Positions 16,205-31,236 of a stretch of 64,000 nucleotides of DNA are shown here, piece by piece. Position numbers and translations under genes: made by a program. Source of the stretch: a phage; NCBI GenBank assembly GCA_033759635.1, contig GCA_033759635.1_4528.1. One strand, given 5' to 3'. Every line of letters begins with the position of its first letter. The first letter of the stretch is position 1. The notes beneath the pieces are model-generated. The model searched no databases and had not been told where the DNA came from. It saw nothing but the letters and a program-made list of their open reading frames with translations.

Positions 16205-16229
16205 GTAATCTAAATTCGAGGAAAATATT

Positions 16230-17186
16230 ATGATGTTAGTTATTGGTTCTCGTGCACTTCACTATCACGGTCTTATTGATTCTAGCGCTATCAAAAATAG
16301 TGATTGGGACTTTATTGCGGACCAATGTTCTTGGAATGCATTCAAAAATCAAATGATGGGTGTATATGTTCACCAAGATAACCCTGGTGTCCAAGTTTTC
16401 AAATGTTTCCATAATGGACGCGAAACTCATTTTGAAGCATACATCGTTCCGGCTATCACTAACGTTCGCGAACTAGTCGGTGAACTCACTCCTGAAGATT
16501 TCACGTCTTCTTATGACCTTTTAAAATACGCCAAGAAAAATTTGACTAAAGACCGTTTGAACGGGTTTTACTGGGCAACTCCTGAGATATGTCTTGCAAT
16601 TAAGATGTCTCATCGTTTCAAGAAAAATAATCCATTCTTTTTAAAGACTATGAACCATATTCAGTATCTTCGTGGTAAAGGTGTTACACTGGACGATGAA
16701 CTTACTGAAATTATGCTGAAACGCCAGAAAGAAACCTTGAACTATGCTCACCCAGTTCTTGACACTTCTAAAAGCGCATTCTTTAAAGATGACATCTATA
16801 CGTATGACCATGATACTATTCACGAAGCCATTGCACTAACAGACCGTCCAGCGTATACATTTTATATGAAAGATGGTTCTGAAGTCATGACCTCACGCGA
16901 GAAGTTCGAATCATTACCAGAAATGGTCAAATTAGCCGGCGTATACGAAGAATCATGTGTACTAGCGTTAGAACGTTCTCAGATTCCTAATAACTTTGAA
17001 ATCCATCCACGTGATAGTTTTATGATGGCATTAGAAAAAGTCTGTACTTCAATCACGTCAGGCTGGTTCCGTGAATACGCTTGGGAAAACTACAGCAAAG
17101 TTGTAAGTATGTACCAAAGCTTAGGACATGACGATTATGTAAAACGTTTTAAACAAAATTTCCATATGGTAAAACCTTTCAAATAA
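16230..17186 (+). CDS. hypothetical protein, possible Pol-beta-type nucleotidyltransferase fold
   Basis: 318 aa; N-terminus IGSRALHYHGLIDSSAIKNSDWDF resembles the hG[GS]...DxD minimal nucleotidyltransferase motif, but spacing is longer than canonical. Confidence 0.4.
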   Translation: MMLVIGSRALHYHGLIDSSAIKNSDWDFIADQCSWNAFKNQMMGVYVHQDNPGVQVFKCFHNGRETHFEAYIVPAITNVRELVGELTPEDFTSSYDLLKYAKKNLTKDRLNGFYWATPEICLAIKMSHRFKKNNPFFLKTMNHIQYLRGKGVTLDDELTEIMLKRQKETLNYAHPVLDTSKSAFFKDDIYTYDHDTIHEAIALTDRPAYTFYMKDGSEVMTSREKFESLPEMVKLAGVYEESCVLALERSQIPNNFEIHPRDSFMMALEKVCTSITSGWFREYAWENYSKVVSMYQSLGHDDYVKRFKQNFHMVKPFK

Positions 17187-17198
17187 TTTCGCAAAACT

Positions 17199-17236
17199 GT
17201 TTACACAATTATAGGACTATGTTATAGTAGTCCTAT
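17199..17236 (+). promoter_or_regulatory. early promoter cassette with stem-loop (PeSL-type)
   Basis: GTTTAC + ATAGGACTA-tgTTATAGT-TAGTCCTAT (same cassette as at 9286). Confidence 0.55.
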
Positions 17237-17256
17237 TAAAACATGAGGAGAATATT

Positions 17257-17562
17257 ATGAAATTAGGCGAAACCAACCGAATTGGTCTTTTAACTATATT
17301 TGTATCACTTTTTTACGTAGCTCTTTCTGTTGCAGTATTACAAAAGGCTTACGATATGGATGGTGTTCCTGGTTTTGTATTCTTATCACCATTTTTATTA
17401 TTCGTCGGGGCTTTGTTATTATATGCCACGACTAGTTTTGACCATAACGTCTGGGTTAATTATAAATGTAAATTGTCTGAAGAAGAACACGCAGAAGCTC
17501 GTAAAAAAACTATTGAATCTACCAATCTAGAAAATTTCATTAAAGAATGTCGAGGAAAATAA
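17257..17562 (+). CDS. small membrane protein, ENFIKECR-tail family (copy 2)
   Basis: Two TM segments; C-terminus ...LENFIKECRGK. Confidence 0.55.
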   Translation: MKLGETNRIGLLTIFVSLFYVALSVAVLQKAYDMDGVPGFVFLSPFLLFVGALLLYATTSFDHNVWVNYKCKLSEEEHAEARKKTIESTNLENFIKECRGK

Positions 17563-17563
17563 T

Positions 17564-18250
17564 ATGAATAGTTCTAAAGTGTTTAATAGTCAAGCTCGTG
17601 CAGTAGGTGGTTTTGCTCATAACGTACAAAATGACCAAATCAAAAATGAACCAATGTTCTTTAACTGTGATTTGAGTTTTGCTTGGGATAACGGCGGTCC
17701 TATTACTCGTAGCTTTATTGCCAATCTCCCAATTGATTGGACTAATCAACATGTTGTATTTGATTCTCGGGTTCATATGCTGATGCCTGGTTGGTATCCT
17801 GCTATTCCTGGATATCACCATGACGATGTTCCTCGCCCTGATATTCCAGTCTGCCAACACTTTATTACTGCAGGACAACCTGACTATGATAACCCTCGTT
17901 ACCATTCTGAACATATTCTTGGTCTTGTTAACGCTGACGTGTGTCCTACTCATTTTGCAACAGGAACTGCAGAGTTCAGTCAGATTCCTGATGGCGAACT
18001 TATCTATCGCCAATGGCACAAAGAAGTCCTCGAAAAAATTGAAAAAGGTGAACTAGAGAAATGGGAAGCTCCAGACCGTACTCTTCTTCAGTTTGATTGG
18101 CAAACATGGCACACTGGTTCTCGTGCAATTAGTAATGGATGGCGTTGGTTCGGACGTGTATCTCGTAATACAGACCGAGTTAAAAAGATTACCAATGAAA
18201 TTCGTGTCAATGCCCAAGTTTATCTGGAATTCCCTATGGAAGGCTGGTAA
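17564..18250 (+). CDS. hypothetical protein (His/Cys-rich)
   Basis: 228-aa ORF; several HxD/HH/Cys clusters suggest metal binding, but no family recognised. Confidence 0.5.
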   Translation: MNSSKVFNSQARAVGGFAHNVQNDQIKNEPMFFNCDLSFAWDNGGPITRSFIANLPIDWTNQHVVFDSRVHMLMPGWYPAIPGYHHDDVPRPDIPVCQHFITAGQPDYDNPRYHSEHILGLVNADVCPTHFATGTAEFSQIPDGELIYRQWHKEVLEKIEKGELEKWEAPDRTLLQFDWQTWHTGSRAISNGWRWFGRVSRNTDRVKKITNEIRVNAQVYLEFPMEGW

Positions 18251-18741
18251 TGATTAACAAAACATATTGGTCTAATATTGTCGACGGCAATGAAGGTATT
18301 TCATACTATTCAGTAGATTGGACAGGATGTCCATCCTACTTAGTGAAACGTATTTGTCAAGAATTTAAAATCGACCAGCCAGCAGGTATTATCGTGAACA
18401 GATACATTAATGGATATCAACCTATCGATGAAGTAATACGAACAACTCAAGCTGATCTTGAAAAGTTTTTCAATAAGTGTCAATGGATAACAGGATGGAT
18501 TATATTTGTACCGTCGGTATGGTTTTTTAGTACTAAAGTAAGTGCCTTTGCCATACCAGATATTATCGCTATCTTATTAGCATCTACTATCGTAAGTATT
18601 ATTGGTGGTATTATTGGTGGAGGTACTATAGGCATCATTATTAATCTTGTTAAAAGTAGTTTACAGGAACGTAAAGACAAGATAAAGGCCAAGAATAATG
18701 AAGTTGAACGTTTTATTACCGAATGCAGGAATTTGAGATGA
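18250..18741 (+). CDS. membrane protein, ENFIKECR-tail family (copy 3)
   Basis: TM segments with a GG-rich helix (IIGGIIGGGTIG); C-terminus ...VERFITECRNLR. Confidence 0.5.
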   Translation: MINKTYWSNIVDGNEGISYYSVDWTGCPSYLVKRICQEFKIDQPAGIIVNRYINGYQPIDEVIRTTQADLEKFFNKCQWITGWIIFVPSVWFFSTKVSAFAIPDIIAILLASTIVSIIGGIIGGGTIGIIINLVKSSLQERKDKIKAKNNEVERFITECRNLR

Positions 18742-18974
18742 GTATAGCAATTTACATTAAATCAGAATCATGTGATAGTTATCTGTACACATATGATAAA
18801 GATGTGTCAGAAGAAAAAATCAAAGACAACCTTAATACGGACCTTGATTTGTTCCGTCCTATTGCAGATTACAAACTTGCGGTCTCTAATAGTGAAAGTC
18901 CATCTAAAGAAACGCGCATTGAAGAATTTATGTCCGAATTAATGGCCAAATCATGGGACCGAGATGATGAGTAA
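18738..18974 (+). CDS. hypothetical protein
   Basis: ORF 18723..18974 trimmed to the Met with AGGA RBS (MSIAIYIKSE...). Confidence 0.45.
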   Translation: MSIAIYIKSESCDSYLYTYDKDVSEEKIKDNLNTDLDLFRPIADYKLAVSNSESPSKETRIEEFMSELMAKSWDRDDE

Positions 18975-19422
18975 GAAAAATAAAGTGAAAGAGATATCAG
19001 CTGGTATTATCTTCATGACAAAAGATAAAGAATTATTCATGGGGCGTGTAACTGGTTCTAGTCCTAAAGGTTCTTTAGCTCATCGGTGGGATATTCCTAA
19101 AGGCCGTGTCGAACCTGGCGAATCTCCTATTGAAGCCGCTATTCGTGAATGCGAAGAAGAAACTGGGTTTACACAATATGACCCTGCCTTCCTGAAAGAC
19201 CTAGGTGAACATAATTACTCAGACAATAAGAATATTCATCTGTTCCTATATACCATCCCTGTAGAGCACGAGCAATTCAGAAACAGTGTTTGTAATTCCT
19301 ATCATACATTCCCGGACGGACGACAGATTCCTGAATTTGATGCATTCGCTTTAATTAAACCTTCTCAATGGGAATATGTAATGGGCAAATCATTATATAA
19401 GGTGCTCACTACCCTCCTATAA
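18964..19422 (+). CDS. nudE: Nudix hydrolase (NudE-like)
   Basis: Nudix box GRVEPGESPIEAAIRECEEETGF; 152 aa; next to lysozyme e as T4 nudE (e.1) is. Confidence 0.8.
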   Translation: MMSKKNKVKEISAGIIFMTKDKELFMGRVTGSSPKGSLAHRWDIPKGRVEPGESPIEAAIRECEEETGFTQYDPAFLKDLGEHNYSDNKNIHLFLYTIPVEHEQFRNSVCNSYHTFPDGRQIPEFDAFALIKPSQWEYVMGKSLYKVLTTLL

Positions 19423-19430
19423 GTAATAAA

Positions 19431-19454
19431 TACCTCCTATAAACGTGGGAGGTA
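19431..19454 (+). promoter_or_regulatory. RBS-sequestering hairpin upstream of lysozyme gene e
   Basis: TACCTCC-tataaacgtg-GGAGGTA; the right arm contains the Shine-Dalgarno GGAGG, 5 nt before the e ATG. Confidence 0.5.
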
Positions 19455-19456
19455 TT

Positions 19457-19945
19457 ATGAATATATTTGAAATGCTTCGTAATGACGAAGGTCTTAGACT
19501 GACTTTATACAAAGACACTGAAGGCTTTTGGACGATTGGCATAGGCCATTTAGTAACAAAGAACCCGTCTTTAGCCGTAGCTAAAGCTGAACTTGACAGA
19601 ATGATCGGTCGTAAATGCAACGGTACAATTACCCTTGATGAGGCTGAAAAGCTATTTAATGAAGACGTTGATAAAGCCGTTCGCGGGATCTTGGGTAATG
19701 CTAAACTTAAACCGGTATATGATTCTTTAGATGCGGTTCGTCGATGTGCATTGGTCAATATGGTCTTCCAAATGGGTGTATCAGGCGTCGCCGGTTTTAC
19801 TAATTCTCTTCGTATGCTTCAACAGAAACGTTGGGATGAAGCGGCAGTAAATTTAGCCCAATCTAAATGGTATCGTCAGACACCTAATCGCGCGAAACGC
19901 GTAATCTCAACATTTAAAACAGGAACTTGGAAAGCGTATATATGA
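19457..19945 (+). CDS. e: endolysin (T4 lysozyme, gene e)
   Basis: [32 protein letters not shown]... is colinear with T4 lysozyme including catalytic Glu11/Asp20/Thr26 context; 162 aa. Confidence 0.95.
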
Positions 19946-20223
19946 AAACATACAGTGAATTTTTATCAGAATCTATTCTTAACGAAGCTACTGACACATT
20001 TGCAACTAAGCTAGGTGCAGCTTTGGTCGAAGCCGAAAGTCTATTAGCACGTATTTCTGAACTTGCTAGTAAGATAGATACTCGCAAATTTGAGCGCACC
20101 AGTGATATCGTTAAGCTTGAAGCACTGTTGCGTATGTGCGATAAACCGGAAGAAATCGCTAAGAACGGCTCGCTGATGAAACAACGTCTTGAAAAATATA
20201 TTTCAGGCGCTTCAGAAAAATAG
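19942..20223 (+). CDS. internal-protein-like protein with capsid targeting sequence
   Basis: ORF 19927..20223 trimmed to [11 protein letters not shown]...; targeting-sequence-like N-terminus; adjacent to e as T4 ipIII is. Confidence 0.55.
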
Positions 20224-20224
20224 T

Positions 20225-20278
20225 GTTTACTTCCTCCAAGGGTTTTGATACTATACATTCATCAACTACTTGGAGGAA
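20225..20278 (+). promoter_or_regulatory. early promoter cassette with long-range inverted repeat
   Basis: GTTTAC; TTCCTCCAAG ... CTTGGAGGAA inverted repeat bracketing GATACTATA; the right arm carries the RBS of denV. Confidence 0.5.
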
Positions 20279-20281
20279 ATT

Positions 20282-20695
20282 ATGACTCGTATCAATTTAA
20301 CACTTGTTTCTGAACTGGCCGACCAACATCTTATGGCTGAGTATCGTGAATTACCTCGTGTATTCGGTGCAGTCCGTAAACATGTTCAAAACGGTAAACG
20401 TGTAAAGGATTTTAAAATCTCTCCAACATTTATCTTAGGCACGGGTCACGTAACATTCTTTTACGACAAACTCGAATTTTTACGTTTACGCCAAATCGAG
20501 CTAATCGCTGAATGTTTGAAACGTGGTTTCAAAATCAAGGACACGACTGTCCAGGATATTTCCGACATCCCTGCCGAATTTCGTAATAATTATGTCCCGT
20601 CCGAAGCGTCCATTGCGATAAGTCAAGCACGCTTAGATGAAAAAATTGCTCAACGTCCGACTTGGTACAAATACTATGGTAAATCAATTTACTAA
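20282..20695 (+). CDS. denV: endonuclease V, pyrimidine-dimer DNA glycosylase (DenV)
   Basis: [34 protein letters not shown]... colinear with T4 endonuclease V; 137 aa. Confidence 0.95.
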
Positions 20696-20701
20696 GGAAA
20701 A

Positions 20702-20962
20702 ATGAAAATGTATCAAGAATTTATCACTGAAGCAGATGCCAAAGGTCCTAAATTTAAAGTTAAAGCTTTCATTGGTGATGCCGAAGACTTTGGCTCATTA
20801 AAACGTAATGGGTATTCTTTCTTAGGTGGCGATGGTAAAGAAATCAACACCTATGCAAAACGTAGTGAAATTGCTTATGTTGTAGTAAATCCTAAAGTAG
20901 ATGTTGACGATATTGGATACGATTTTAACAACTTCGGAATTATTTCTGGCGGTAAAGCTTAA
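20702..20962 (+). CDS. internal-protein-like protein with capsid targeting sequence
   Basis: N-terminus MKMYQEFITEA; 86 aa. Confidence 0.55.
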   Translation: MKMYQEFITEADAKGPKFKVKAFIGDAEDFGSLKRNGYSFLGGDGKEINTYAKRSEIAYVVVNPKVDVDDIGYDFNNFGIISGGKA

Positions 20963-21026
20963 ATTGTTTACGCTTAAGTATTAATATGGTATAATTACTC
21001 TATCAAAACAAACAAGGAAACAAAAA

Positions 21027-21329
21027 ATGAAAACATATCAAGAATTTATTACTGAAGCGCGAGTGAGTGCAGGTAAATTAGAAGCCGCTATAAATAAAAA
21101 GGCCCATTCATTTCATGATTTGTCCGATAAAGACCGTAAGAAACTTGTAAGCCTTTATATTGACAAAGAGCGTATTCTCGCTCTTCCTGGCGCTAATGAA
21201 GGTAAACAGGCCAAGCCTTTGAATGCTGTCGAAAAGAAAATTGATAACTTTGCTTCTAAATTCGGTATGTCTATGGATGACCTTCAGCAAGCGGCTATCG
21301 AAGCAGCTAAAGTAATTAAAGGTAAATAA
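21027..21329 (+). CDS. internal-protein-like protein with capsid targeting sequence
   Basis: N-terminus MKTYQEFITEA (near-consensus targeting sequence); 100 aa. Confidence 0.6.
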   Translation: MKTYQEFITEARVSAGKLEAAINKKAHSFHDLSDKDRKKLVSLYIDKERILALPGANEGKQAKPLNAVEKKIDNFASKFGMSMDDLQQAAIEAAKVIKGK

Positions 21330-21442
21330 CAGTTTACTTTCTCCTAGAATTGTGATAGTATATTCATAATTACTTAGAGGGGTAAATACAGAAATGGACA
21401 ATTCATGCGCCACGGAATGGCCCAACCTAAAAGAGAAACTAA

Positions 21443-21982
21443 ATGAGAACATTTTTAACTGGTCCTTATCTATCCCTGATGAATGCTTTTACACACCATT
21501 CTGATGCTAGAGTAGAAGAAATTTGTAAGAACGGTTATGCCCCACCATTTGAAGACGTACTCAAGCAGTACTGTACACTTCGTTTAGACGGCGGCAGACA
21601 ATCCGGTAAATCAATTGCTGTGACTAATTTTGCTGCTAATTGGTTGTATGATGGCGGAACAGTTATTGTTCTTTCTAATACTTCAGCTTACGCTAAAATT
21701 TCTGCCGGCAACATTGAAAAAGAATTTTCTCGATATTCTAGCGATGATATTCGATTCCGTTTATTTACTGATTCTGTCCGTAGTTTTATTGGTAATGAAG
21801 GACATAAATTCCGTGGATTAACGCTTTCTCGTATTCTGTACATAATTGACGAGCCTATTAAAGCTCCTGATATGGATAAGATTTACGACATCCATATTAA
21901 AACAGTCCAACACTGTTGCAAAAGCAAATATTGCATCGGTGGTATTGCTCGTCCTCAATTTTTTGTGATTGGAATGCAATGA
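21443..21982 (+). CDS. hypothetical P-loop protein
   Basis: Walker-A-like GGRQSGKS; 179 aa. Confidence 0.45.
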   Translation: MRTFLTGPYLSLMNAFTHHSDARVEEICKNGYAPPFEDVLKQYCTLRLDGGRQSGKSIAVTNFAANWLYDGGTVIVLSNTSAYAKISAGNIEKEFSRYSSDDIRFRLFTDSVRSFIGNEGHKFRGLTLSRILYIIDEPIKAPDMDKIYDIHIKTVQHCCKSKYCIGGIARPQFFVIGMQ

Positions 21983-22287
21983 TGACCACTATTGAAGTTT
22001 TTGAGCATTGTTATAACAGCCCAGTATGTAATAAAAGGGCCCTTGTAGAAAATTATGAGATTTACCATTTTAAACCTAAACGATACCGTTTGACTAAAGG
22101 TCCGTTCGCAGGGCAGCAGGTTCTTTGTACTGCTCCTAATGCACGGTTGATGACTAGTATTCCGCATTTCAAAATGGAATTTATTGATGGGCCATTTAAG
22201 GGATTAATAACTCAAAGTTTAATGGCGTTTAATTCCGATCCATTTTTGATTAAAGAAAAATCTTGGATAAATTTATTTTCTAATTGA
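21979..22287 (+). CDS. hypothetical protein
   Basis: ORF 21916..22287 trimmed to the Met overlapping the previous stop (MMTTIEVFEH...). Confidence 0.45.
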   Translation: MMTTIEVFEHCYNSPVCNKRALVENYEIYHFKPKRYRLTKGPFAGQQVLCTAPNARLMTSIPHFKMEFIDGPFKGLITQSLMAFNSDPFLIKEKSWINLFSN

Positions 22288-22293
22288 GGTTAT

Positions 22294-22656
22294 ATGAAAG
22301 CATATCAAATTCTTGAAGGTGAACATAAAGGCACTATTTATTTTGAAGACTGTACTCAAGCCCGGATTATTGTCTCTAAGACTTTTAAAGAAGACGCTAT
22401 TGTAGATCCAGAAATTTTCTACGGTTTGAATGCTCGTGAAATTGAAATTGAACATCAACCTAAAGTTAAAATTGAAGGTGGTCAACACCTGAACGTTAAC
22501 GTTCTGCGTCGCGAAACTCTGGAAGATGCAGTTAAGCATCCAGAAAAATATCCGCAGCTGACCATCCGTGTATCCGGTTATGCAGTTCGCTTTAACTCTC
22601 TGACTCCGGAACAGCAGCGCGACGTTATCGCTCGTACCTTTACCGAGAGTCTATAA
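22294..22656 (+). CDS. autonomous glycyl-radical cofactor (GrcA/YfiD-like)
   Basis: C-terminal glycyl-radical domain ...[29 protein letters not shown]; about 120 aa, the size of E. coli GrcA and T4 Y06I. Confidence 0.8.
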
Positions 22657-22880
22657 TGGCTAAATTGATTATAGAAGGGTCTGAAGATGTTTTAAAATGT
22701 TTTGCCGCCTGGTTTAGTTGCTCAGGCGAGCAATCATTCATTGAAGCATTTAGAATGGGTGATATTACTGGAAACTATCCGACAACTGATATCACTGTAC
22801 GTGGATATGGTATTAATGAGCCTATCCAATTGGTCGAATATGACCTTGCCACAGATGAGGAAATTCCTTATGTCGATTGA
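22656..22880 (+). CDS. hypothetical protein
   Basis: 74-aa ORF, ATGA-coupled to the GrcA-like gene. Confidence 0.45.
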   Translation: MAKLIIEGSEDVLKCFAAWFSCSGEQSFIEAFRMGDITGNYPTTDITVRGYGINEPIQLVEYDLATDEEIPYVD

Positions 22881-23136
22881 AGATATTAAAGGCTACAAGC
22901 CACATACCGACGATAAAATCAGTAAAGTGAACGCTATTAAAGATGCAGAAGTCCGTCTTGGATTGATGTTTGATGCTCTGATTGAAGAAGCATATATCTT
23001 AAAAGAAAATGAAACAGAGCAACAAACCAAAGAAGATATGGATGCAGTGCAGGCTCTTAAGTATGCTAAGCAACATCTAAAAGAAGCTAGTATGTGGGCT
23101 TGTCGTGCGGTATTTCAACCAGAGGAAAAATACTAA
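22870..23136 (+). CDS. hypothetical protein
   Basis: Taken from long ORF 22702..23136 at the internal Met ([12 protein letters not shown]...) to avoid overlap. Confidence 0.45.
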
Positions 23137-23435: not shown

Positions 23436-23485
23436 TTTACTTCTCCTCTAGTTGTGTTACTATAGACCTGTCAACTAGAGGAGAA
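23435..23485 (+). promoter_or_regulatory. early promoter cassette with long-range inverted repeat
   Basis: GTTTAC; TTCTCCTCTAGTTG ... CAACTAGAGGAGAA bracketing TGTTACTATAG; right arm includes the regB RBS. Confidence 0.5.
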
Positions 23486-23491
23486 ATCAAA

Positions 23492-23950: not shown

Positions 23951-23958
23951 AGGTAAAC

Positions 23959-24501
23959 ATGAGAAAAGCACTACTCGCTGGTCTATTTGCTCTTTCGTTA
24001 TCAGCACATAGCTCCGAGCATACTTTTAGTAATGTCCAACTCGATAACTTGAATTATGCTTATCAGTTTGGGGAACAGTTTTCTAAGGACGGAAAATTTA
24101 AAACGCATGAAAATATGCATAAGAAAGGACTTGGATACATAATGGCCGCAATACTATGGCAAGAATCATCTGCCGGTATTAATCTTAAAGATAAGAAAGG
24201 TCACCATGCGTATGGAATGTTCCAAAATTATCTACCGACAATGAGGGCAAGAATTAACCAGCTTGGTTATAATATGTCTGATGCCCAAATTAAGAAAATG
24301 CTATCTAAGCGGTCTAATTCGGCCAGATGGGCTTATATCGAATTTTCTTATTGGTTAAATATACATAACGGGGATATAAGAAAAGCTATATCCTCATATA
24401 ATGCGGGGTGGAAGACAAGTGCTGGAAGTAAATATGCTTCTGAAGTCCTAGAAAAGGCTAATTACCTTAAATCAAATAAACTACTGGAAATAAAAGAATG
24501 A
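23959..24501 (+). CDS. exported lytic transglycosylase (SLT domain)
   Basis: N-terminal signal peptide; SLT motifs in order: ES (LWQESSAG), GLMQ-like (YGMFQ), AYNAG-like (SYNAGW). Confidence 0.65.
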   Translation: MRKALLAGLFALSLSAHSSEHTFSNVQLDNLNYAYQFGEQFSKDGKFKTHENMHKKGLGYIMAAILWQESSAGINLKDKKGHHAYGMFQNYLPTMRARINQLGYNMSDAQIKKMLSKRSNSARWAYIEFSYWLNIHNGDIRKAISSYNAGWKTSAGSKYASEVLEKANYLKSNKLLEIKE

Positions 24502-24845
24502 CCAAAATGTTAGCTTTAATAGTTGGCTTGGTTTCATTTAACGCTCTTGCTAATACTACATATACTGATGTAACGGAGTATACAAACAGAACGGCGTCTG
24601 ATTATTGTGGTAAAAGTCAAGAGTGTAAAGTAGATTTTTCACAAAAATTGTTATATGCGTATAAAGACGGAGAAAAAGATGGGGCGTCTAGTAGGTTCAA
24701 GGCGTCTACCTTAATTAAAAGATACTATAAAAAATGGCAAATATTAGAATGCTCGGTGGCGGAACCTAAAGATAAGGCAGCATGCAATTCTATGGTGGAC
24801 CGTCTAGTTGACTCTTATACTAGAGGACTTGCAGCAAGTGATTAA
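24498..24845 (+). CDS. exported Cys-containing protein
   Basis: Signal peptide (MTKMLALIVGLVSFNALA), four Cys; ATGA-coupled to the transglycosylase gene. Confidence 0.5.
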   Translation: MTKMLALIVGLVSFNALANTTYTDVTEYTNRTASDYCGKSQECKVDFSQKLLYAYKDGEKDGASSRFKASTLIKRYYKKWQILECSVAEPKDKAACNSMVDRLVDSYTRGLAASD

Positions 24846-25305
24846 AAACTATATCAAGGGCGATATTGTCGCCCTGTTTTCTAAAGGTAATAATATTGCT
24901 CATGGGTGCAATTGTTTTCATACAATGGGTGCCGGTGTAGCAGGTCAATTGGCAAAGGCTTATCCAAAAATTTTAGAAGCCGATAAACTTCAAACCGAAT
25001 TCGGAGACGAGTCTAAACTCGGGACTTATTCGGTTTATGAAAAATATTTTAAGACCCATAAAGCTTATTGCTTTAATCTTTATACACAGTTTGAGCCGGG
25101 ACCTAATTTTGAGTACTCTGCTTTAATGAATTGTATAATAGAATTAAATGAATTCGGAAAAAATAAGATAACAAAGCCTGTAATTTATATGCCAAGAATT
25201 GGTGCAGGTATTGGTGGTGGAAACTGGGATGTCATCGAAGAGATTTTAGATACGTATTCCACTAAACTAGAAATTGTGATTGTTGATTGGGAACCATTGT
25301 TATGA
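24808..25305 (+). CDS. macro domain protein (putative ADP-ribose binding/hydrolase)
   Basis: Macro-domain signature N-x-A-x(5)-G-x-G-V-x-G (NIAHGCNCFHTMGAGVAGQLAKAYP); track start is TTG at 24808, GTG at 24838 is an alternative. Confidence 0.6.
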   Translation: MTLILEDLQQVIKNYIKGDIVALFSKGNNIAHGCNCFHTMGAGVAGQLAKAYPKILEADKLQTEFGDESKLGTYSVYEKYFKTHKAYCFNLYTQFEPGPNFEYSALMNCIIELNEFGKNKITKPVIYMPRIGAGIGGGNWDVIEEILDTYSTKLEIVIVDWEPLL

Positions 25306-25514
25306 ATGTGCATTATCCTCACCCGTATGACCCAAAGAATAAAGCAGTTATTATTCGTGAATGGGAAGAAATTCGTCAGACTAAGTGTCCTATTAATAGT
25401 CCACATGATGTCGATAAAGACTACATTGGAACATTCGTTGAATATACCTTTATTGATAAGAAAGGTCGTAAACAGCATGTAGAAGAATACTGCTTAAAGG
25501 TGACATGGTTATGA
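25302..25514 (+). CDS. hypothetical protein
   Basis: ORF 25287..25514 trimmed to MNVHYPHPYD... Confidence 0.45.
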   Translation: MNVHYPHPYDPKNKAVIIREWEEIRQTKCPINSPHDVDKDYIGTFVEYTFIDKKGRKQHVEEYCLKVTWL

Positions 25515-25696
25515 GTTTAAGTAAAGAACAAAAAGACAAACTCTTTTCTCTTATCCATGAAGTTATGGATAAAAATAGCGAATTGGAAAAAGTTTGTAAT
25601 GAATGTGGTCCTTTTAATACTGACGAATACGAAGAACTGTGTAAAGATTTTGACGATAAAGAGCAAGAACTTATTGATTATATAAATTCATTATGA
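25505..25696 (+). CDS. small acidic hypothetical protein
   Basis: 63 aa; similar in size and composition to the next ORF. Confidence 0.45.
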   Translation: MVMSLSKEQKDKLFSLIHEVMDKNSELEKVCNECGPFNTDEYEELCKDFDDKEQELIDYINSL

Positions 25697-25890
25697 TTAC
25701 TCGCGAACAAAAGAACGAAATATTATTTTTAGTTGGTGAAATTATTAGTTTAGAAAAGGATTTGTCTTTTGAAATATCTTCTGAATATGGAGATGCCGAA
25801 ACATATTACGAATTAGTAAAATCTATCAATAAAGCTGAAAATGATTTAGAAACATATTTAGAAAATTTAACTAAGGACTCTTATGGCTAG
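25693..25890 (+). CDS. small acidic hypothetical protein
   Basis: 65 aa, ATGA-coupled. Confidence 0.45.
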   Translation: MITREQKNEILFLVGEIISLEKDLSFEISSEYGDAETYYELVKSINKAENDLETYLENLTKDSYG

Positions 25891-26464
25891 TTTAATTTTT
25901 ACCTATGCCGCTATGAACGCTGGTAAGTCTGCTTCATTACTTACTGCCGCACATAACTATAAAGAACGTGGCATGGGTGTATTAGTTCTTAAACCTGCTA
26001 TTGATACTCGAGATTCAAAAGGTGAAATAGTCTCTCGTATTGGTATTCGTCAGGATGCCAATATAATTACAAAAGACATGGACATCTTTGAATTCTATAA
26101 ATGGGCTGCAGCACAAAAGGATATTCATTGTGTATTTGTTGACGAAGCTCAGTTCTTAACTACTGAAAAGGTGTATCAACTTAGTCGTATTGTTGACGTA
26201 TACAATGTGCCAGTAATGGCATATGGACTACGAACAGATTTTAAAGGTAATCTATTTGAAGGTTCTCAAGCATTAATGGCTATTGCCGATAAGCTTGTTG
26301 AACTTAAAGGTGTCTGTCATTGCGGTAAAAAGGCCACAATGGTAGCTAGAGTCACGGAAGATGGACTTCCAATTACAGATGGTGGACAAATTGAAATTGG
26401 TGATACCGATAGATACGTGTCATTATGCCGGAAGCATTGGAATGATTTGACAGGGATGTTATAA
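25883..26464 (+). CDS. tk: thymidine kinase
   Basis: P-loop YAAMNAGKS, VDEAQF, C-terminal Zn-ribbon CHCGKKA...CRKH; 193 aa as T4 Tk. Confidence 0.9.
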   Translation: MASLIFTYAAMNAGKSASLLTAAHNYKERGMGVLVLKPAIDTRDSKGEIVSRIGIRQDANIITKDMDIFEFYKWAAAQKDIHCVFVDEAQFLTTEKVYQLSRIVDVYNVPVMAYGLRTDFKGNLFEGSQALMAIADKLVELKGVCHCGKKATMVARVTEDGLPITDGGQIEIGDTDRYVSLCRKHWNDLTGML

Positions 26465-26491
26465 ATACTAATATCTAACCAAGAGGTATAT

Positions 26492-26704
26492 ATGCAGCAA
26501 TTAAACGAAAGACAACTTCGTAATCTTACTGTAACCCAATTGGATGAAATCCGAAGAGAATTAGGACATTCTATTTCTCATTTAAATGAGGATATCCGTC
26601 AAACTGGTTCTAAAGCTGATTATACACGCAAGCGCAAGCTGGAAAAATACCTCACAGATGTTAAGGCCGTCCAAAGGCGAAAAATAAATACTGGCCAAAA
26701 TTAA
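26492..26704 (+). CDS. hypothetical protein
   Basis: 70-aa basic ORF between tk and rI. Confidence 0.45.
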
Positions 26705-26716
26705 CAGGAGGCCTAT

Positions 26717-27019
26717 ATGGCCTTAAGAGCGATAGCTGTCATAGCGATGCTGGGGTTTTTTGCAGCAACAACTCCTATCGTTGGTACTGCACATATTGAC
26801 CCATATTTTGATAACTTTATGGAATCAGGGATTAAAAACGTATATACTTTGTTTGAAATTCAAAATGTCGAGAATTCTGAAAAATTCTATAAGTATATGG
26901 CAAAGCATTACAAAAATAGCCCCTGTGATGATGCATTTGAATGTCATGAACAAGGCATAAAAACTGCCAGACAATTTGCTGAGTTCATGAAAATAAAATT
27001 AGAGCCTACATCTATCTAA
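26717..27019 (+). CDS. rI: RI lysis-inhibition antiholin
   Basis: N-terminal signal-anchor-like segment then DPYFDNFMESGIKNVYTLFE...SPCDDAFEC..., colinear with T4 RI as recalled from memory; 100 aa; next to tk as in T4. Confidence 0.8.
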   Translation: MALRAIAVIAMLGFFAATTPIVGTAHIDPYFDNFMESGIKNVYTLFEIQNVENSEKFYKYMAKHYKNSPCDDAFECHEQGIKTARQFAEFMKIKLEPTSI

Positions 27020-27025
27020 TTTACT

Positions 27026-27053
27026 AGCCCCTTCCTTATGGTTGGGGCTTTTT
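27026..27053 (+). terminator. rho-independent terminator (repeated cassette, copy 3)
   Basis: AGCCCC-ttccttatggtt-GGGGCT + TTTT, followed by ggcatcta as in copy 2. Confidence 0.7.
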
Positions 27054-27064
27054 GGCATCTATCA

Positions 27065-27116
27065 GTTTACTTCTCCTCAGGTTGTGTTATAGTAGTCCTT
27101 ACTTACTAGAGGAGAA
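27065..27116 (+). promoter_or_regulatory. early promoter cassette with long-range inverted repeat
   Basis: GTTTAC; TTCTCCTC ... GAGGAGAA bracketing TGTTATAGT. Confidence 0.5.
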
Positions 27117-27120
27117 CGTT

Positions 27121-27300
27121 ATGACACGTAAAGAAAAGATTTCTAAGTTGATGTTTTTGATTGAAGAGTACGCTAATGCGGTATCTGATTGGGAAAATGC
27201 TCATGGTTGCGAAGATGGAGACATCGACATTAACAGAGCTATGAAAAAGATGGCCGACGCCCACACTGAATTGCAAATGTATGTTAACGAGATTATGTGA
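27121..27300 (+). CDS. hypothetical protein
   Basis: ORF 27052..27300 trimmed to MTRKEKISKL... downstream of the promoter. Confidence 0.45.
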   Translation: MTRKEKISKLMFLIEEYANAVSDWENAHGCEDGDIDINRAMKKMADAHTELQMYVNEIM

Positions 27301-27307
27301 GGATATT

Positions 27308-27514
27308 ATGCTTTACGATTATACTGGAAAATCTGAAGACGGTGTGCTTGAACTTTTACCTGAAAGCGCTGAAGATGATGATATGGTGGCAATGTTTTGT
27401 AAAAATGGTCCTGGGGATAAGGGATGGATTTATCTTCGCCAAGAAAATGACCTAATTGTTTTAGACCCAAAACAAGTTGAAGAACTTTATCAACATTTAA
27501 AACACAATCGGTAG
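27308..27514 (+). CDS. hypothetical protein
   Basis: ORF 27281..27514 trimmed to MLYDYTGKSE... with GAGGA RBS. Confidence 0.45.
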   Translation: MLYDYTGKSEDGVLELLPESAEDDDMVAMFCKNGPGDKGWIYLRQENDLIVLDPKQVEELYQHLKHNR

Positions 27515-27551
27515 TTTACATCTTGGTAGGACTATGTTATAGTAGTCCTAC
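27514..27551 (+). promoter_or_regulatory. early promoter cassette with stem-loop (PeSL-type)
   Basis: GTTTAC + GGTAGGACTA-tgTTATAG-TAGTCCTACC (10-bp arms). Confidence 0.55.
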
Positions 27552-27572
27552 CAAAACAAACGGAGAACAAAA

Positions 27573-27683
27573 TGAAACTTTTGCTTATCGCTTATGTTGT
27601 AGTACAATACAATTATCCGATGTTTACTTATAACATGGTAAACGGCATAGTGAATCTTATTGAAACGAGTATGGTAAAATGAC
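27573..27683 (+). CDS. very small hydrophobic ORF (36 aa)
   Basis: MKLLLIAYVVVQYNYPMF...; GGAG RBS directly after the promoter cassette; below track cutoff. Confidence 0.3.
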
Positions 27684-27858
27684 CCGTGAACAAGCTAATA
27701 AATTGATGGACCTTATCCGTGACCTACGTGAAGCCGATTCAGATTTGAATGATGTAGCTTATCACGCGGTAAATGATAACGGAGACTTTTATGAAAATCA
27801 GGTTGATGCGTGCCAGAATGCTTTGGTGAATTTTGTTGAAACTTTAATTGGTGAATAA
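27679..27858 (+). CDS. small hypothetical protein (59 aa)
   Basis: MTREQANKLMDLIRDLREADSDL...; ATGA-coupled; below track cutoff. Confidence 0.4.
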   Translation: MTREQANKLMDLIRDLREADSDLNDVAYHAVNDNGDFYENQVDACQNALVNFVETLIGE

Positions 27859-27859
27859 T

Positions 27860-28390
27860 ATGAAAATTGTAATTGAAACAACCGAGTTGTTTGGTGATTT
27901 ATGTATCGAAAAACGTGGTTATGTGTATGTTCTGACACAAGAAGATGATTCTGTTACTATTCTTCCTATGGAACTGGACAAGATTTTGAAACTCAATCCG
28001 CCAGGCCATGCATCTGTAATTAACATCGATGAAGACCTTCAAGTTCGTTTTTATCACGGTCTTTATAGTGGGGTTAATATCGAAACAGAAGATGAATGCC
28101 TTTCTATTAATAATTGGAAAACATTCGTCACTAAGGTGAAAGAATTAATGGAATCTGAAACAGCCAAAAAGGCCAAACTTCAATGGGCTAAATGCCGTAA
28201 TGCTTTTATTACAAATCAGGACCGCCCTGACTATACAACGGTCCTAGGCGTTAATCCTTCTTATGAAGATGGCGATGTTGTAGTTATTCGCCAAATTGAT
28301 GACCTTCGTCAACATATCGTTACATTAGACAAAGATGAAGCAGTTGCTCTTAAAGCTTATCTCGATTCTATTATCCCAACTTTGAAATAA
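27860..28390 (+). CDS. hypothetical protein
   Basis: ORF 27848..28390 trimmed to MKIVIETTEL... Confidence 0.5.
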   Translation: MKIVIETTELFGDLCIEKRGYVYVLTQEDDSVTILPMELDKILKLNPPGHASVINIDEDLQVRFYHGLYSGVNIETEDECLSINNWKTFVTKVKELMESETAKKAKLQWAKCRNAFITNQDRPDYTTVLGVNPSYEDGDVVVIRQIDDLRQHIVTLDKDEAVALKAYLDSIIPTLK

Positions 28391-28399
28391 GGAATTATT

Positions 28400-28873
28400 A
28401 TGATTATCAATGAAAACTCTTGGCACTTTAAAATTTATGCCGCGTTTAATAGTACATGGAATCGTCCGAAAACGTTGTGTGCTTATTTTTGGAAAACGTT
28501 TCTCCCGGTATTGTTTGTTTCGATTATTGGATTTGCGATTTTAGCAGCGGCCACAATCGTTGGCCATGAAATTTTAACTAAATTCTTTGTCTTTAGTAGT
28601 TTATGGTCATTGGTTCCGGCCTCAATTGGTGTAGGTGTTTTATTCATTGCATTATGTGTTGGTATTTCTATAGTTTTAGTATTAGGCATACCGTGGCTAA
28701 TCGACTTATATAGAGAGCGGAAGTATTATAAAGAAATTGAGCTCATTGCGCAAAACCAAGAACGAATTAAAAATGGACTTGAGCCTATTGAACGTAAGAA
28801 ATCATTAATAGGTGAATACCTTAAAGCTCGTAAAGAAAAAGTCTGTCCTACTCTTGAATATAAGGCTAAATAA
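28400..28873 (+). CDS. membrane protein
   Basis: Three predicted TM segments, charged C-terminal tail. Confidence 0.5.
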   Translation: MIINENSWHFKIYAAFNSTWNRPKTLCAYFWKTFLPVLFVSIIGFAILAAATIVGHEILTKFFVFSSLWSLVPASIGVGVLFIALCVGISIVLVLGIPWLIDLYRERKYYKEIELIAQNQERIKNGLEPIERKKSLIGEYLKARKEKVCPTLEYKAK

Positions 28874-29859
28874 TGAAAACGATTGTTAAGGCTTACTTTG
28901 GTAGCCACCTTTATGGAACGTCTACTCCTGAATCTGACGTTGATTTTAAAGAAATTTATGTCCCTCATGCTCGTGATATTTTGACCGGTAACGTTAAAGA
29001 ACATATGAGCAAGAACACGAATAACACATCTTCTAAGAACACAAAAGACGACGTAGACCATGAGTTGTATAGTCTCAAATATTTCTTTAAACTAGCTGCA
29101 GATGGTGAAACCGTCGCATTAGATATGCTTCACACTCCACCGAGTCTAGTAGTTAAATCTGATTTGCCTGATGTATGGAAGTATATTCAAGATAACAGAT
29201 CTCGTTTCTATACCACTAACATGAAATCTTATTTAGGGTATGTCCGTAAGCAAGCTTCTAAATATGGCGTCAAGGGTTCTCGTCTGGCTGTTCTCCGCCA
29301 AGCCCTTAAACGTTCTAATGAATGGGGACAATACTTTGACAACGGTGCAGTAATTCGTTTATCACATATGAAGAATGTTCTGCCTATAGGTGAATTTGCT
29401 TCGTGGATTGAAACCGAAAACGAGAAAACAGGTAAGCAAACATTCTATAATCTGTTAGACCGTAAATTCCAAGACACGTTAACCAATAAAGAGTTCAATG
29501 CCATCCTGGTTAAACTGGAAGAGAACTATGGTGAACGTGCTCGTAAGGCAGAAGCTAACGAAGGTATTGATTGGAAAGCATTGAGTCATGCATGCCGTGG
29601 TGGACTTCAGCTCTTAGAAATTTACAAAACCGGCGACCTGGTTTACCCGCTTCAGGATGCTCCATTTATTCTCGATGTTAAGCTTGGTAAACATACGTTT
29701 AAAACCGTACAGGAATTCTTAGAAGATATCGTTGACCAAGTTGAACATGCCGCAGAACAAGCCGCTAAGAACGGTATGCAGCAAAAAGTAGATATGAGTT
29801 TCTGGGATGACTTCCTTGAGCAAGTCTACTTAGAAAACCACAATTCATACTATAAATGA
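28873..29859 (+). CDS. Pol-beta-superfamily nucleotidyltransferase-fold protein
   Basis: N-terminal FGSHLYGTSTPESDVDF (G-S...D-x-D) with a downstream acidic strand (GETVALDML); 328 aa with a helical C-terminal half. Confidence 0.5.
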   Translation: MKTIVKAYFGSHLYGTSTPESDVDFKEIYVPHARDILTGNVKEHMSKNTNNTSSKNTKDDVDHELYSLKYFFKLAADGETVALDMLHTPPSLVVKSDLPDVWKYIQDNRSRFYTTNMKSYLGYVRKQASKYGVKGSRLAVLRQALKRSNEWGQYFDNGAVIRLSHMKNVLPIGEFASWIETENEKTGKQTFYNLLDRKFQDTLTNKEFNAILVKLEENYGERARKAEANEGIDWKALSHACRGGLQLLEIYKTGDLVYPLQDAPFILDVKLGKHTFKTVQEFLEDIVDQVEHAAEQAAKNGMQQKVDMSFWDDFLEQVYLENHNSYYK

Positions 29860-29860
29860 T

Positions 29861-29878
29861 AAGGGCCTTCGGGCCCTT
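29861..29878 (+). terminator. GC hairpin with UUCG tetraloop (terminator-like)
   Basis: AAGGGCC-ttcg-GGCCCTT immediately after the stop; weak T-tract. Confidence 0.4.
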
Positions 29879-29966
29879 TAGGGGGTCAAAATATTTTTAA
29901 AAAGTAGTGTACATGCTTTTAGGATATGTTATTATAGGACCTATCAAAACAAGAGGAGAAAACAAA

Positions 29967-30185
29967 ATGAAAACCAAAATGTTAGAAATGATTCGTGAAG
30001 CTGGTGATAAAGGTCTTATGGTTAACACTCGTAATGCAGACCAACGTCAAGCATTCGGTGAACTGAAATCTAAAGGTCTGGTTAAAGCATCCTTGGGAAT
30101 CGGTAATGCATTACGAGTCACTTTGACTCCTGCCGGTAAAGCAGTGTTCTTTCAACCTCTTACCAAAAAATCTCGTCGCAAATAA
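29967..30185 (+). CDS. small basic protein
   Basis: ORF 29907..30185 trimmed to MKTKMLEMIREAGDKG... (AGAGGAGAA RBS); 72 aa. Confidence 0.45.
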   Translation: MKTKMLEMIREAGDKGLMVNTRNADQRQAFGELKSKGLVKASLGIGNALRVTLTPAGKAVFFQPLTKKSRRK

Positions 30186-30255
30186 TTGTTTACTTTTGCT
30201 TTAAACATGTTATTATAGACCTATCGAAACGAAATGAGTAAATTTGGAGAATAAA

Positions 30256-31236
30256 ATGTTCAACGTTCAGATCAAAAAAGGTATCTATCGTAATAACGAA
30301 ATCTCTGGTTCTTATGTTGCCACAAAGACATGGTTCCCGGCAAAGCTTAATCCTGAATGTTCCCACTTAGGTGACGGTAAAATTTTCGTTATGATTGATG
30401 GTTCTGAACGTGGAGTATGGGTCTTCAAATCAGACATCGTAATGGAAGGAGTTGAGACATCACCAGTTGCAGTTGTTGAAAGCACTGAAGATATGAAAAC
30501 TCGTATCAACAAACGCTTTAAAGTAATGAACATGATGACGAATGGCATTATTGATGGCAAAATTCGTTCACTCATTATTTCAGGTGCAGCTGGTATTGGT
30601 AAGACGTATTCTCTGGATAAAGCACTTAATAATGCTAATGATAACGGTTTCATCAAATACAAAAGCATTAATGGTAAAATCTCTGGTATTGGCCTTTACG
30701 AACAACTTTGGCTCAACCGTGATGAAGACAGCGTTCTCTTAATCGATGACGTTGACGTATTCTCAGATATGGACATCCTGAACCTTCTTAAAGCAGCATT
30801 AGATACCGGAGATAAACGCAAAGTTTGTTGGAGCACTGCGTCATCTTATCTCGAGGATAAGGGTATTGATAAAGAATTTGAGTTTGAAGGTACTATCGTT
30901 TTCATTACAAACGTTGATATCGATAAAGAGTTAGAACGGGGTTCGAAACTTGCTCCACACCTTCAAGCTTTAGTATCTCGTTCAGTGTATCTCGACCTTG
31001 GAGTACACTCTAATGAAGAGATTATGGTTCGAGTTGAAGATGTAATATTATCTACTGACATGATGCAGAAACGTGGTCTGACGGATGCAGAAACGTATAA
31101 AGCATTGTCCTGGATGAAGGCTAACGTATCTCGTCTTCGCAATGTATCATTACGTACGGCTCTTTATGTAGCAGATTTTATTTCAACTGATAAAGATGGT
31201 TGGGAAGAAATCTCGGAAGTTACTTTACTGAAATAA
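30256..31236 (+). CDS. P-loop ATPase (AAA-like)
   Basis: Walker A GAAGIGKT and Walker B LLIDDVD; 326 aa. Confidence 0.55.
   Translation: MFNVQIKKGIYRNNEISGSYVATKTWFPAKLNPECSHLGDGKIFVMIDGSERGVWVFKSDIVMEGVETSPVAVVESTEDMKTRINKRFKVMNMMTNGIIDGKIRSLIISGAAGIGKTYSLDKALNNANDNGFIKYKSINGKISGIGLYEQLWLNRDEDSVLLIDDVDVFSDMDILNLLKAALDTGDKRKVCWSTASSYLEDKGIDKEFEFEGTIVFITNVDIDKELERGSKLAPHLQALVSRSVYLDLGVHSNEEIMVRVEDVILSTDMMQKRGLTDAETYKALSWMKANVSRLRNVSLRTALYVADFISTDKDGWEEISEVTLLK

Follow-up and report, generated by a model that had tools for sequence, protein, structure and literature searches.

ORF134c, a phage-specific nucleotidyltransferase linked to small acidic proteins with a common tail motif in an RB69-like phage

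The DNA analysed here is a stretch of 64,000 nucleotides from a phage (GenBank assembly GCA_033759635.1, contig GCA_033759635.1_4528.1), referred to below as the window, and the phage is RB69-like, a T-even phage of the genus Mosigvirus. The analysis concerns a nucleotidyltransferase gene, ORF134c (16230-17186), with the genes for small acidic proteins directly in front of it, and two further genes, nrdC.11 (28873-29859) and nrdC.10 (30256-31236), which lie 11.7 kb away from it and encode a second nucleotidyltransferase and an ATPase. These three open reading frames (ORFs) had been listed in an original prediction made from the DNA letters without database searches, and all three are present on the + strand. 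Escherichia phage CCU7 is 98.9% identical to the window over positions 27800-31300 and Shigella phage Shf125875 is about 96% identical there, and over 15900-18300 the identity to both phages is 99%. RB69 gene names for the window ORFs were taken from the RefSeq annotation of Shf125875, in which 16230-17186 is named ORF134c, 28873-29859 nrdC.11, 29967-30185 ORF102c and 30256-31236 nrdC.10. All genes of both stretches are on the + strand and belong to the early, "hyperplastic" region of the genome, with ORF134c positioned between e.3-like genes and e.2/nudE/e. The ORF134c gene and the three tail-protein genes upstream of it are as follows.

15108..15413, + strand: tail protein 1, 101 amino acids (aa), isoelectric point (pI) 4.6, RB69 ORF138c/139c-like, phrog_899; recognised by its C-terminal tail, ending ...GAWVSSSALC
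15423..15695, + strand: tail protein 2, 90 aa, pI 4.7, an N-terminal helix followed by an F-x-L-x-P-A-YGMGG-T-Y core, ending ...GGWVASSMEC; recognised from alignment A3
15705..15902, + strand: tail protein 3, 65 aa, pI 4.2, with a distinct body (phrog_4882); recognised by its C-terminal tail, ending ...QGWVSSSYSC
16230..17186, + strand: nucleotidyltransferase of the RB69 ORF134c family, 318 aa, with a MenT-like minimal Pol-beta core (residues ~1-160) and a highly conserved helical DUF7275 extension

In Pfam, ORF134c is covered by DUF7277 (residues 2-101) and DUF7275 (120-305) only. The family was detected by tblastn in at least 734 phage records, with proteobacteria as well as actinobacteria as hosts (Escherichia, Acinetobacter, Aeromonas, Pseudomonas, Vibrio, Gordonia and Streptomyces), and among 185,579 species genomes there were only 5 homologues, all on phage-looking metagenome-assembled contigs; the family is phage-specific. 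The nucleotidyltransferase motif consists of G6/S7 (16245-16250), D25-W-D27 (16302-16310) and E69 (16434-16436), and G6, S7, D25, D27 and E69 are invariant among 44 homologues, as are, in the C-terminal part, K125 (16602-16604), H128, K139, R165, E168, H174, H194, D195, H198, E240, E241, C243, E248, R249, C272 and others. G-S...D-x-D is retained even in the shorter and most divergent homologues, which come from phages of Streptomyces and Gordonia and from some Vibrio phages (~30% identity). An AlphaFold model of ORF134c was obtained with a predicted local distance difference test score (pLDDT) of 91.6 and a predicted template modelling score (pTM) of 0.86, and its top structural matches were MenT1, MenT3, ANT(2''), MenT4 and LnuA, with MenT1 placed first by Foldseek (probability 1.00, 184/195 columns). 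The model has a MenT-type fold, the match spanning ~145-180 N-terminal residues, and for the second half of the protein (the rest of DUF7275) the fold searches returned no counterpart among solved structures. The original prediction had described 16230-17186 as carrying a weaker version of the signature seen in 28873-29859, and had proposed that the presence of a Pol-beta-like core and the conservation of the motif Asp residues be checked. The core is seen in the model and D25/D27 are invariant in the 44 homologues, so that the nucleotidyltransferase assignment stands; the lower ranking does not, the call being well supported by a confident model and an invariant catalytic set.

Sequence comparison with known families was negative for ORF134c in several collections. 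AbiEii/DUF1814 (PF08843) gave no Pfam match up to E=10, whether the whole protein or its separate halves were used. Searches of PDB chain sequences with ORF134c, NrdC.11 and NrdC.10 yielded nothing meaningful, even with profiles (a 44-sequence profile in the case of ORF134c), and NCBIfam and PADLOC scans of the proteins produced sub-threshold noise only. An assignment of DUF7275 as an HD-type phosphohydrolase, considered from H194-D195...H198, was rejected as no HD family or fold match was found.

The three proteins encoded in front of ORF134c end in W-x-x-S-S-x-x-C, a C-terminus found in 3 of the 552 window ORFs of at least 30 aa, all three within 15108-15902. The genes around 80 viral ORF134c homologues were clustered, and small same-strand ORFs immediately upstream were the only gene family that accompanied ORF134c into distant phages. 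One to five tail-motif ORFs were present upstream on the same strand in 73 of the 80 loci in this forward search, and in 45 of the 51 distant loci, those with an enzyme at most 61% identical. The distant tail-positive loci include jumbo-phage contigs of 355-371 kb, contigs of ~100 and ~150 kb, and Acinetobacter, Aeromonas and Pseudomonas phages; the exceptions comprise one locus with a variant W-D-S-S-T-C, one with only 243 bases of upstream DNA, and one lineage truly lacking tail genes. A reverse search, by a collection scan seeded on the internal YGMGG pattern instead of the tail, returned 40 loci; in 37 of them an ORF134c-family ORF (profile E < 1e-77) lies downstream at a distance of a few hundred bases, and contig ends account for two of the other three. 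The first 80 kb of T4 (the early half with the e region; 616 ORFs) contain no ORF134c, ORF132c or tail ORF, and e.2 abuts e.3 there. This partner gene family went unnoticed in the original prediction, and owing to it ORF134c, the candidate ranked as weaker, is the novel part.

The main small-protein family (A3) is built of a helix, F-x-F-x-P-x-Y-G-M-G-G-x-Y, a variable acidic linker and the tail, with G40, M41, G42, G43, W83, S86, S87 and C90 (tail protein 2 numbering) invariant. When the last ten residues were removed from 226 unique tail proteins, the remaining bodies formed 11 clusters, one of 194 (the YGMGG family), one of 16 and several small ones, and the body of tail protein 3 clustered apart once its tail was removed; as judged from these clusters, the W-x-x-S-[S/T]-x-x-C tag is portable across unrelated or variable bodies. 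The codons of 133 unique tail proteins include all six Ser codons, from both codon boxes, at the two invariant serines, and both Cys codons. The selection is therefore on the peptide, and a nucleotide-level element (a terminator, ribosome-binding site or recombination site) was ruled out as the explanation of the tail. An independent metagenomic sample contained the same tail together with a variant, W-x-S-S-T-x-x-C with one extra residue after it, and the variant-tail gene also lay upstream of a DUF7277+DUF7275 gene. From these metagenomic variants the constant features of the tag are W, Ser at W+3, Ser/Thr at W+4 and Cys at W+7, the alternation of Ser and Thr at W+4 retaining the hydroxyl. 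With a median pI of 4.4 the tail proteins are acidic, while residues 111-170 of ORF134c are basic (pI 9.5). In one 81-aa tail protein, from a viral-contig locus among L006-L131, the tag is duplicated within the protein, with an internal copy (...HWSDSSC...) and a terminal one (...DWDSSSANC).

Other features around ORF134c bear on whether the pairing is more than proximity.

15907..15944, + strand: PeSL-like early promoter and stem-loop, GTTTACA-N5-ATAGGGCTATGTTATAGTAGTCCTAT, left boundary of an ORF135c-ORF134c cassette
15953..16204, + strand: ORF135c-like acidic protein, 83 aa, phrog_3723, between the tail genes and the enzyme
17199..17236, + strand: second PeSL-like promoter and stem-loop, right boundary of the ORF135c-ORF134c cassette
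17257..17562, + strand: ORF133c, small predicted membrane protein ending ...ENFIKECRGK, a neighbour
17564..18250, + strand: ORF132c, 228 aa, no Pfam family, a frequent neighbour in T4-like phages

A 38-base promoter-plus-hairpin, GTTTACA-N5-ATAGGNCTATGTTATAGTAGTCCTAT, occurs on the + strand in four copies (9286-9323, 15907-15944, 17199-17236 and 27514-27551), compared with none in shuffles of the window. It resembles the PeSL class, elements by which modules of T4-type phages are reportedly shuffled (PMC2839356, PMC4122927). The tail genes and ORF134c could accordingly be mere neighbours that share ancestry or were transferred together as cassettes in hyperplastic regions, without any interaction. 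PeSL-bounded cassettes shuffle in the hyperplastic regions of T4-like phages, such elements bracket ORF135c-ORF134c, and the tail genes fall outside that bracket. However, the enzyme and the tail genes still occur together where the enzyme is only 40-45% identical, in phage groups unrelated to one another and with every other neighbour replaced, and the pairing is seen in both search directions. A control motif was available in the FIxECR tails of the same region, which were found in just 4 of the 51 distant loci and are confined to close relatives; the enzyme-tail pairing is therefore not ordinary synteny, and chance neighbourhood is left with only a slight probability. By the same confinement FIxECR was rejected as a part of the module, and ORF135c, ORF133c and ORF132c were rejected as members with homologues in only 12, 1 and 23 of the 80 loci, respectively, ORF135c probably not being core because of its low count.

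Two of these neighbouring gene groups have features of their own. Endings of the form ...(E)-x-F-I-x-E-C-R... are common to four + strand proteins (13786-14409, 14815-15111, 17257-17562 and 18250-18741), three of them small predicted membrane proteins, and since the Arg codons are drawn from both codon boxes the conservation is at the peptide level. ORF132c is 82% identical in Aeromonas phages (L038 7889-8572, L040 6946-7629) in which the adjacent enzyme is only 45% identical, an unusual strength of conservation for a hyperplastic-region gene.

ORF134c combines a nucleotidyltransferase fold and an intact catalytic set with exclusive and reciprocal genetic linkage to the tagged proteins, whose tail is under selection at the peptide level with the hydroxyl kept. 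The enzyme and the acidic proteins encoded upstream (15108-15902) would work together as one module, the proteins being substrates or regulators of the enzyme and the tail hydroxyl the point of contact. The tag would dock in the ORF134c cleft, which has the basic patch of residues 111-170 and the DUF7275 extension, and the enzyme would move a nucleoside monophosphate (NMP) from a nucleoside triphosphate to the tag hydroxyl at W+4 (Ser/Thr), by which a set of early phage proteins may be marked or activated. Genetic linkage and peptide selection are observed, and from them we infer the binding, the transferred group and the acceptor; modification of the tag by ORF134c is accordingly put forward as a tentative reading with somewhat less than an even chance of being right. 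Its fuller form is a phage-exclusive system of post-translational tagging, in which a MenT-like nucleotidyltransferase with DUF7275 reads the tag on arrays of acidic early proteins and modifies it covalently by O-nucleotidylation or a Ser/Thr-Cys crosslink, and this is possible but doubted rather more than believed. Precedents for hydroxyl-directed chemistry by small nucleotidyltransferases are MntA and the MenT toxins, described further below, and ANT(2'') and LnuA, which nucleotidylate hydroxyls of small molecules. A calcineurin-like phosphoesterase (Pfam Metallophos, E=3e-15) is encoded 0.2-3.8 kb from the ORF134c homologue in 15 distant loci, on jumbo-phage contigs and phage contigs of ~150 kb (loci L039, L045, L051, L052, L056 and L057 among them); it might fit reversible phosphoester chemistry, a faint indication at most. 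Two conserved ORFs of ~160 and ~400 aa without a Pfam match recur alongside this phosphoesterase.

Several observations weigh against modification of the tag by ORF134c. The closest structural relatives of the enzyme act on the 3' ends of transfer RNA (tRNA) or on small molecules and not on proteins, and the small upstream partner of MenT1 is an inhibitor and not a substrate. In one lineage (L049, L050, L054 and L074) and at the locus L130 only one of the two partners is present. In some tails another residue follows the Cys, so that the tag is not always at the very C-terminus. The most distant short homologues lack tail proteins and stand beside a different small protein of ~100 aa with the motif ...RYFK...YYSY...V-x-E-V-x-P-x-x-K-T-I-T and no Pfam match (L086 5630-5968, L087 4600-4893, L088 5611-5976, L089 4360-4653). 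This protein may be a second partner family, from which it appears that the ORF134c enzyme clade generally has small partners of its own. 

The MenT relationship supports a different use of the same parts. ORF134c could be a MenT-type tRNA 3'-end nucleotidyltransferase that shuts off or reprograms translation or tampers with host tRNAs, and the tail proteins would then be inhibitors or timers like MenA1, the 68-aa protein encoded upstream of MenT1, which blocks the active sites of that enzyme. The tail would plug the active site as a pseudo-substrate or tRNA-acceptor mimic, the module would be toxin-antitoxin-like and RNA would be the true substrate. All of MenT1, MenT3 and MenT4, the best structural matches, are tRNA nucleotidyltransferases, and the gene order of small ORF(s) followed by the enzyme is that of the MenT1 locus. 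The acidity of the tail proteins resembles that of nucleic-acid mimics, and the basic segment of ORF134c lies where MenT toxins bind tRNA. The MenT active site is [S/T]-x-D (T39/D41 in MenT1, S78/D80 in MenT3) with an essential Lys (K137 in MenT1, K189 in MenT3), and the invariant K125 of ORF134c likewise lies in the helix after the core, its proposed equivalence to MenT1 K137 being one of position rather than of residue-level superposition. Against this, ORF134c has D-x-D where the MenT enzymes have [S/T]-x-D, lacks the AbiEii/DUF1814 match in Pfam at E=10, and has no MenT counterpart for about half of its length. It is difficult to see why one toxin should have as many as five paralogous "antitoxins", which carry a single invariant tag on 11 or more unrelated bodies, and the strict W, the two hydroxyls and the Cys suggest chemistry over simple occlusion. 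An inhibitor role of the tail proteins is the main rival to modification of the tag and is less likely than not; were it true, these phages would use the same weapon as the AbiE and MenAT defences of their hosts.

The spacing of the tag permits a further explanation, maturation of the kind known from ribosomally synthesised and post-translationally modified peptides (RiPPs). An O-nucleotidylated Ser/Thr of the tag would be eliminated to a dehydro-residue, to which the tag Cys would add to give a lanthionine-like thioether ring, with DUF7275 acting as the lyase or cyclase. Residues spaced as [S/T]-x-x-C, with the Cys at the C-terminus, form lanthionine and AviCys rings, as in epidermin (S19...C22). 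The tag has this spacing with a mostly C-terminal Cys, Ser and Thr alternate at W+4 while the Cys at W+7 is invariant, DUF7275 contains the invariant Cys243 and Cys272 and several His, Asp and Glu residues that possibly bind metal, and a single enzyme serves many tandem precursor-like genes. The idea is improbable all the same, as it rests on motif spacing, the "precursors" are 60-160-aa proteins with conserved bodies and not leader peptides, and no similarity to LanB, LanC, LanM, LanKC, a kinase or a lyase was found in Pfam, NCBIfam or PDB. We know of no precedent for dehydration driven by nucleotidylation.

ORF134c, annotated only as two DUFs, gains a predicted chemistry, a predicted catalytic centre and predicted partners with a four-residue invariant tag. 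No description of the ORF134c-tail module was found in the literature searched, including searches for DUF7275, DUF7277 and phage-encoded DUF1814, and as far as that literature goes the pairing is undescribed, although it is built on a known enzyme fold. If the tag is modified, viruses would have a protein modification of a new kind, the tag, short and portable as it is, could find use as a tool, and ORF134c would be the first nucleotidyltransferase of its clade with a family of tagged proteins as substrates instead of tRNA.

The second gene stretch, and the RNA genes of the window, are as follows.

28873..29859, + strand: NrdC.11 orthologue, Pol-beta nucleotidyltransferase of the RlaP family, 328 aa; identified by Pfam PF10127, phrog_388, the annotation of relatives and identity to T4
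29967..30185, + strand: RB69 ORF102c-like basic protein, 72 aa, between NrdC.11 and NrdC.10
30256..31236, + strand: NrdC.10 orthologue, AAA+ ATPase, 326 aa; identified by invariant motifs and the AAA+ fold
10789-10862 and 10869-10945, + strand: tRNA-Met(CAT) and tRNA-Arg(TCT), the sole RNA family matches in the window

The start of 28873-29859, MKTIVKAYFGSHLYGTSTPESDVDF, had been picked out as a minimal nucleotidyltransferase signature, and translation confirmed G10/S11 (28900-28905), D22-V-D24 (28936-28944) and the later acidic residues D60 (29050-29052) and E64. The original prediction assigned no function to this protein, and that statement is outdated, the protein being an orthologue of NrdC.11 of the RlaP family. 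Its residues 6-139 score 48.6 bits (E=1.1e-12, gathering score 23) with the Pfam model of RlaP, PF10127 ("RNA repair pathway DNA polymerase beta family"), the protein also matches phrog_388 "nucleotidyltransferase" with E=1e-125, and T4 NrdC.11 is 78% identical to it. An alignment was built from distant phage homologues, a large protein collection having given only near-identical sequences, and in it G10, S11, D22, D24, D60 and E64 are invariant among the window protein, T4, Vibrio phage D482 (31% identity) and MS32 (25% identity), by which the second check proposed for the motif Asp residues is answered for this enzyme also. By these sequence comparisons NrdC.11 is a member of the known RlaP family. 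In the Vibrio jumbo phage MS32 the homologue directly follows a CCA-adding enzyme; its neighbours in the window are a membrane protein, ORF102c and NrdC.10. A "polynucleotide kinase" label beside the ESCO10 phage homologue was set aside, as it looked unreliable.

The RlaP family was earlier predicted to replace nucleotides lost to nucleases such as RloC ahead of ligation. A December 2025 preprint (PMC12776372) describes RlaP enzymes as composed of an N-terminal nucleotidyltransferase domain, in which three Asp residues are strictly conserved, and a C-terminal helical domain; two of them from Pseudomonas, PfRlaP and PaRlaP, add 1-2 NMP to an RNA 3'-OH, with a preference for the 5' half of cleaved tRNA and no action on DNA or protein, and T4 NrdC.11 is named and placed in cluster 5 of the RlaP sequence network. 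The COG3541 nucleotidyltransferase match of nrdC.11 and the AAA match of nrdC.10 had been noted in 2006 (PMC1524935), and T4 deletions covering nrdC.11-mobD.3 are viable. Among the functions that the original prediction had offered for the small nucleotidyltransferases, an RNA-modifying enzyme fits NrdC.11, and a signalling-nucleotide synthase finds no backing, with no CD-NTase or SMODS match for either nucleotidyltransferase. The most likely role of NrdC.11 would be to put back nucleotides that anticodon nucleases have removed from tRNAs of the host or the phage, after which the phage kinase-phosphatase and ligase would reseal the tRNAs. Two points weigh against this role. No RNA ligase or kinase gene was found within ~3 kb of NrdC.11 in the window, the RNA-repair genes of T-even phages presumably being located elsewhere in the genome. 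RlaP activity has been measured only on the two Pseudomonas enzymes, which belong to cluster 1a and not to the cluster of NrdC.11 (PMC12776372). The firm placement of a conserved T4 gene in the RlaP family points to a possible counter to wobble-excising anticodon nucleases such as RloC.

The reading of 30256-31236 as a P-loop ATPase was correct, the protein having an AAA+ core with invariant Walker A and B motifs. NrdC.10 consists of an N-terminal beta domain (residues 1-64) followed by Walker A (30583-30606), Walker B (ending at 30750), the sensor-1 residue N219 and R242, and 39 homologues, the least similar 52% identical, retain Walker A (S-G-A-x-G-I-G-K-T) and Walker B (D-D) along with N219, R242 and many more residues. 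The model (pLDDT 89) shows the N-terminal beta domain, the AAA+ core and a lid in succession, and the protein is placed in AAA+ by Walker A, Walker B, sensor 1, the Arg, the alpha-beta-alpha core and the helical lid. A homologue of NrdC.11 lies just upstream of NrdC.10 in 39 of 79 viral loci, namely those in which NrdC.10 is at least ~57% identical (enterobacterial and Acinetobacter T4-likes), with essentially none below; the pairing is gone in Aeromonas, Vibrio (KVP40-like) and marine T4-like contigs, and in Vibrio phage D484 the NrdC.10 gene is flanked by nrdAB and topoisomerase II. Because the adjacency is found only in close relatives, the functional link between the two proteins is weak: NrdC.10 is a stand-alone ATPase widely conserved across the T4 superfamily, and its adjacency to NrdC.11 is synteny and not an obligate partnership.

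Distant homologues of NrdC.10 are often found near ribonucleotide-reductase-like genes, and in 25 of 38 distant loci (marine T4-like contigs L193-L221) the gene is directly followed by a 481-aa ORF with helicase-like ATGAGKT and DEVH motifs, read by eye. This context hints at DNA metabolism, and not RNA repair, as the setting of NrdC.10. Homologues of NrdC.10 and NrdC.11 are labelled "thioredoxin" in many GenBank records, and neither protein has a thioredoxin domain; the labels look like an annotation error spread from the names nrdC.10 and nrdC.11.

It was also considered whether the three genes, or NrdC.11 with NrdC.10, form a system that makes signalling nucleotides or counters host defences in the manner of CD-NTase, OAS or MNT-HEPN. 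The Pol-beta fold is present in both nucleotidyltransferases, NrdC.10 is a neighbour of NrdC.11 in the T-even phages and in the T4-like phages of Acinetobacter, and there is a weak NCBIfam MntA match of NrdC.11, which remained below threshold (E=0.059, 13 bits against a cut-off of 60). These points are outweighed by the lack of any CD-NTase, SMODS or OAS family match or notable PADLOC match (OAS1 appeared only in Foldseek, at E=0.32), by the lack of a HEPN or effector gene in either neighbourhood, and by the assignment of NrdC.11 to a specific family with RNA-end-extending activity. In addition, the adjacency is broken in Aeromonas, Vibrio and marine T4-likes, where NrdC.10 lies by replication and nucleotide-metabolism genes, and such a system is very unlikely. 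The grouping of the three genes that the original prediction implied does not hold, given the 11.7 kb gap and the loss of NrdC.10/NrdC.11 adjacency below ~57% identity; they are three independent early genes and not one system.

Compared with known AAA+ groups, MoxR (NorQ/CbbQ), NtrC, DnaA, ORC/Cdc6 and the clamp loaders, NrdC.10 has the same core, Walker A/B, sensor 1 and conserved Arg, but a unique N-terminal beta domain of ~64 residues. NrdC.11 is like the RlaP enzymes in scoring over the family threshold, in its G-S and three-carboxylate set, in its similar length and in having sequence C-terminal to the nucleotidyltransferase core; it differs from the characterised members (cluster 1a) in belonging to cluster 5 and in having no adjoining RNA ligase gene in the window genome.

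ORF134c most resembles the MenT/AbiEii enzymes, and especially MenT1 with MenA1, in its best structural match, its minimal Pol-beta core, the following helix with an invariant Lys and the small ORFs upstream. It is unlike them in its canonical D-x-D, the absence of a sequence-family match, an extra conserved extension of ~150 residues and its restriction to phages, and where MenT1 has a single antitoxin the partners of ORF134c are one to five acidic proteins with a common W-x-x-S-S/T-x-x-C tag. MenT toxins auto-phosphorylate an active-site Ser (PMC11375011). ANT(2'') and LnuA, the other structural matches, act on small molecules and have neither the helical DUF7275 extension nor partner proteins. 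The proposed chemistry, transfer of NMP onto a hydroxyl of a partner protein, is like that of MntA, a minimal nucleotidyltransferase which poly-adenylylates HepT by moving adenosine monophosphate onto a hydroxyl of its adjacently encoded partner (PMC7641770). In MntA, however, the acceptor is a Tyr of a HEPN ribonuclease, whereas ORF134c has no HEPN gene beside it, no family match and many tagged partners.

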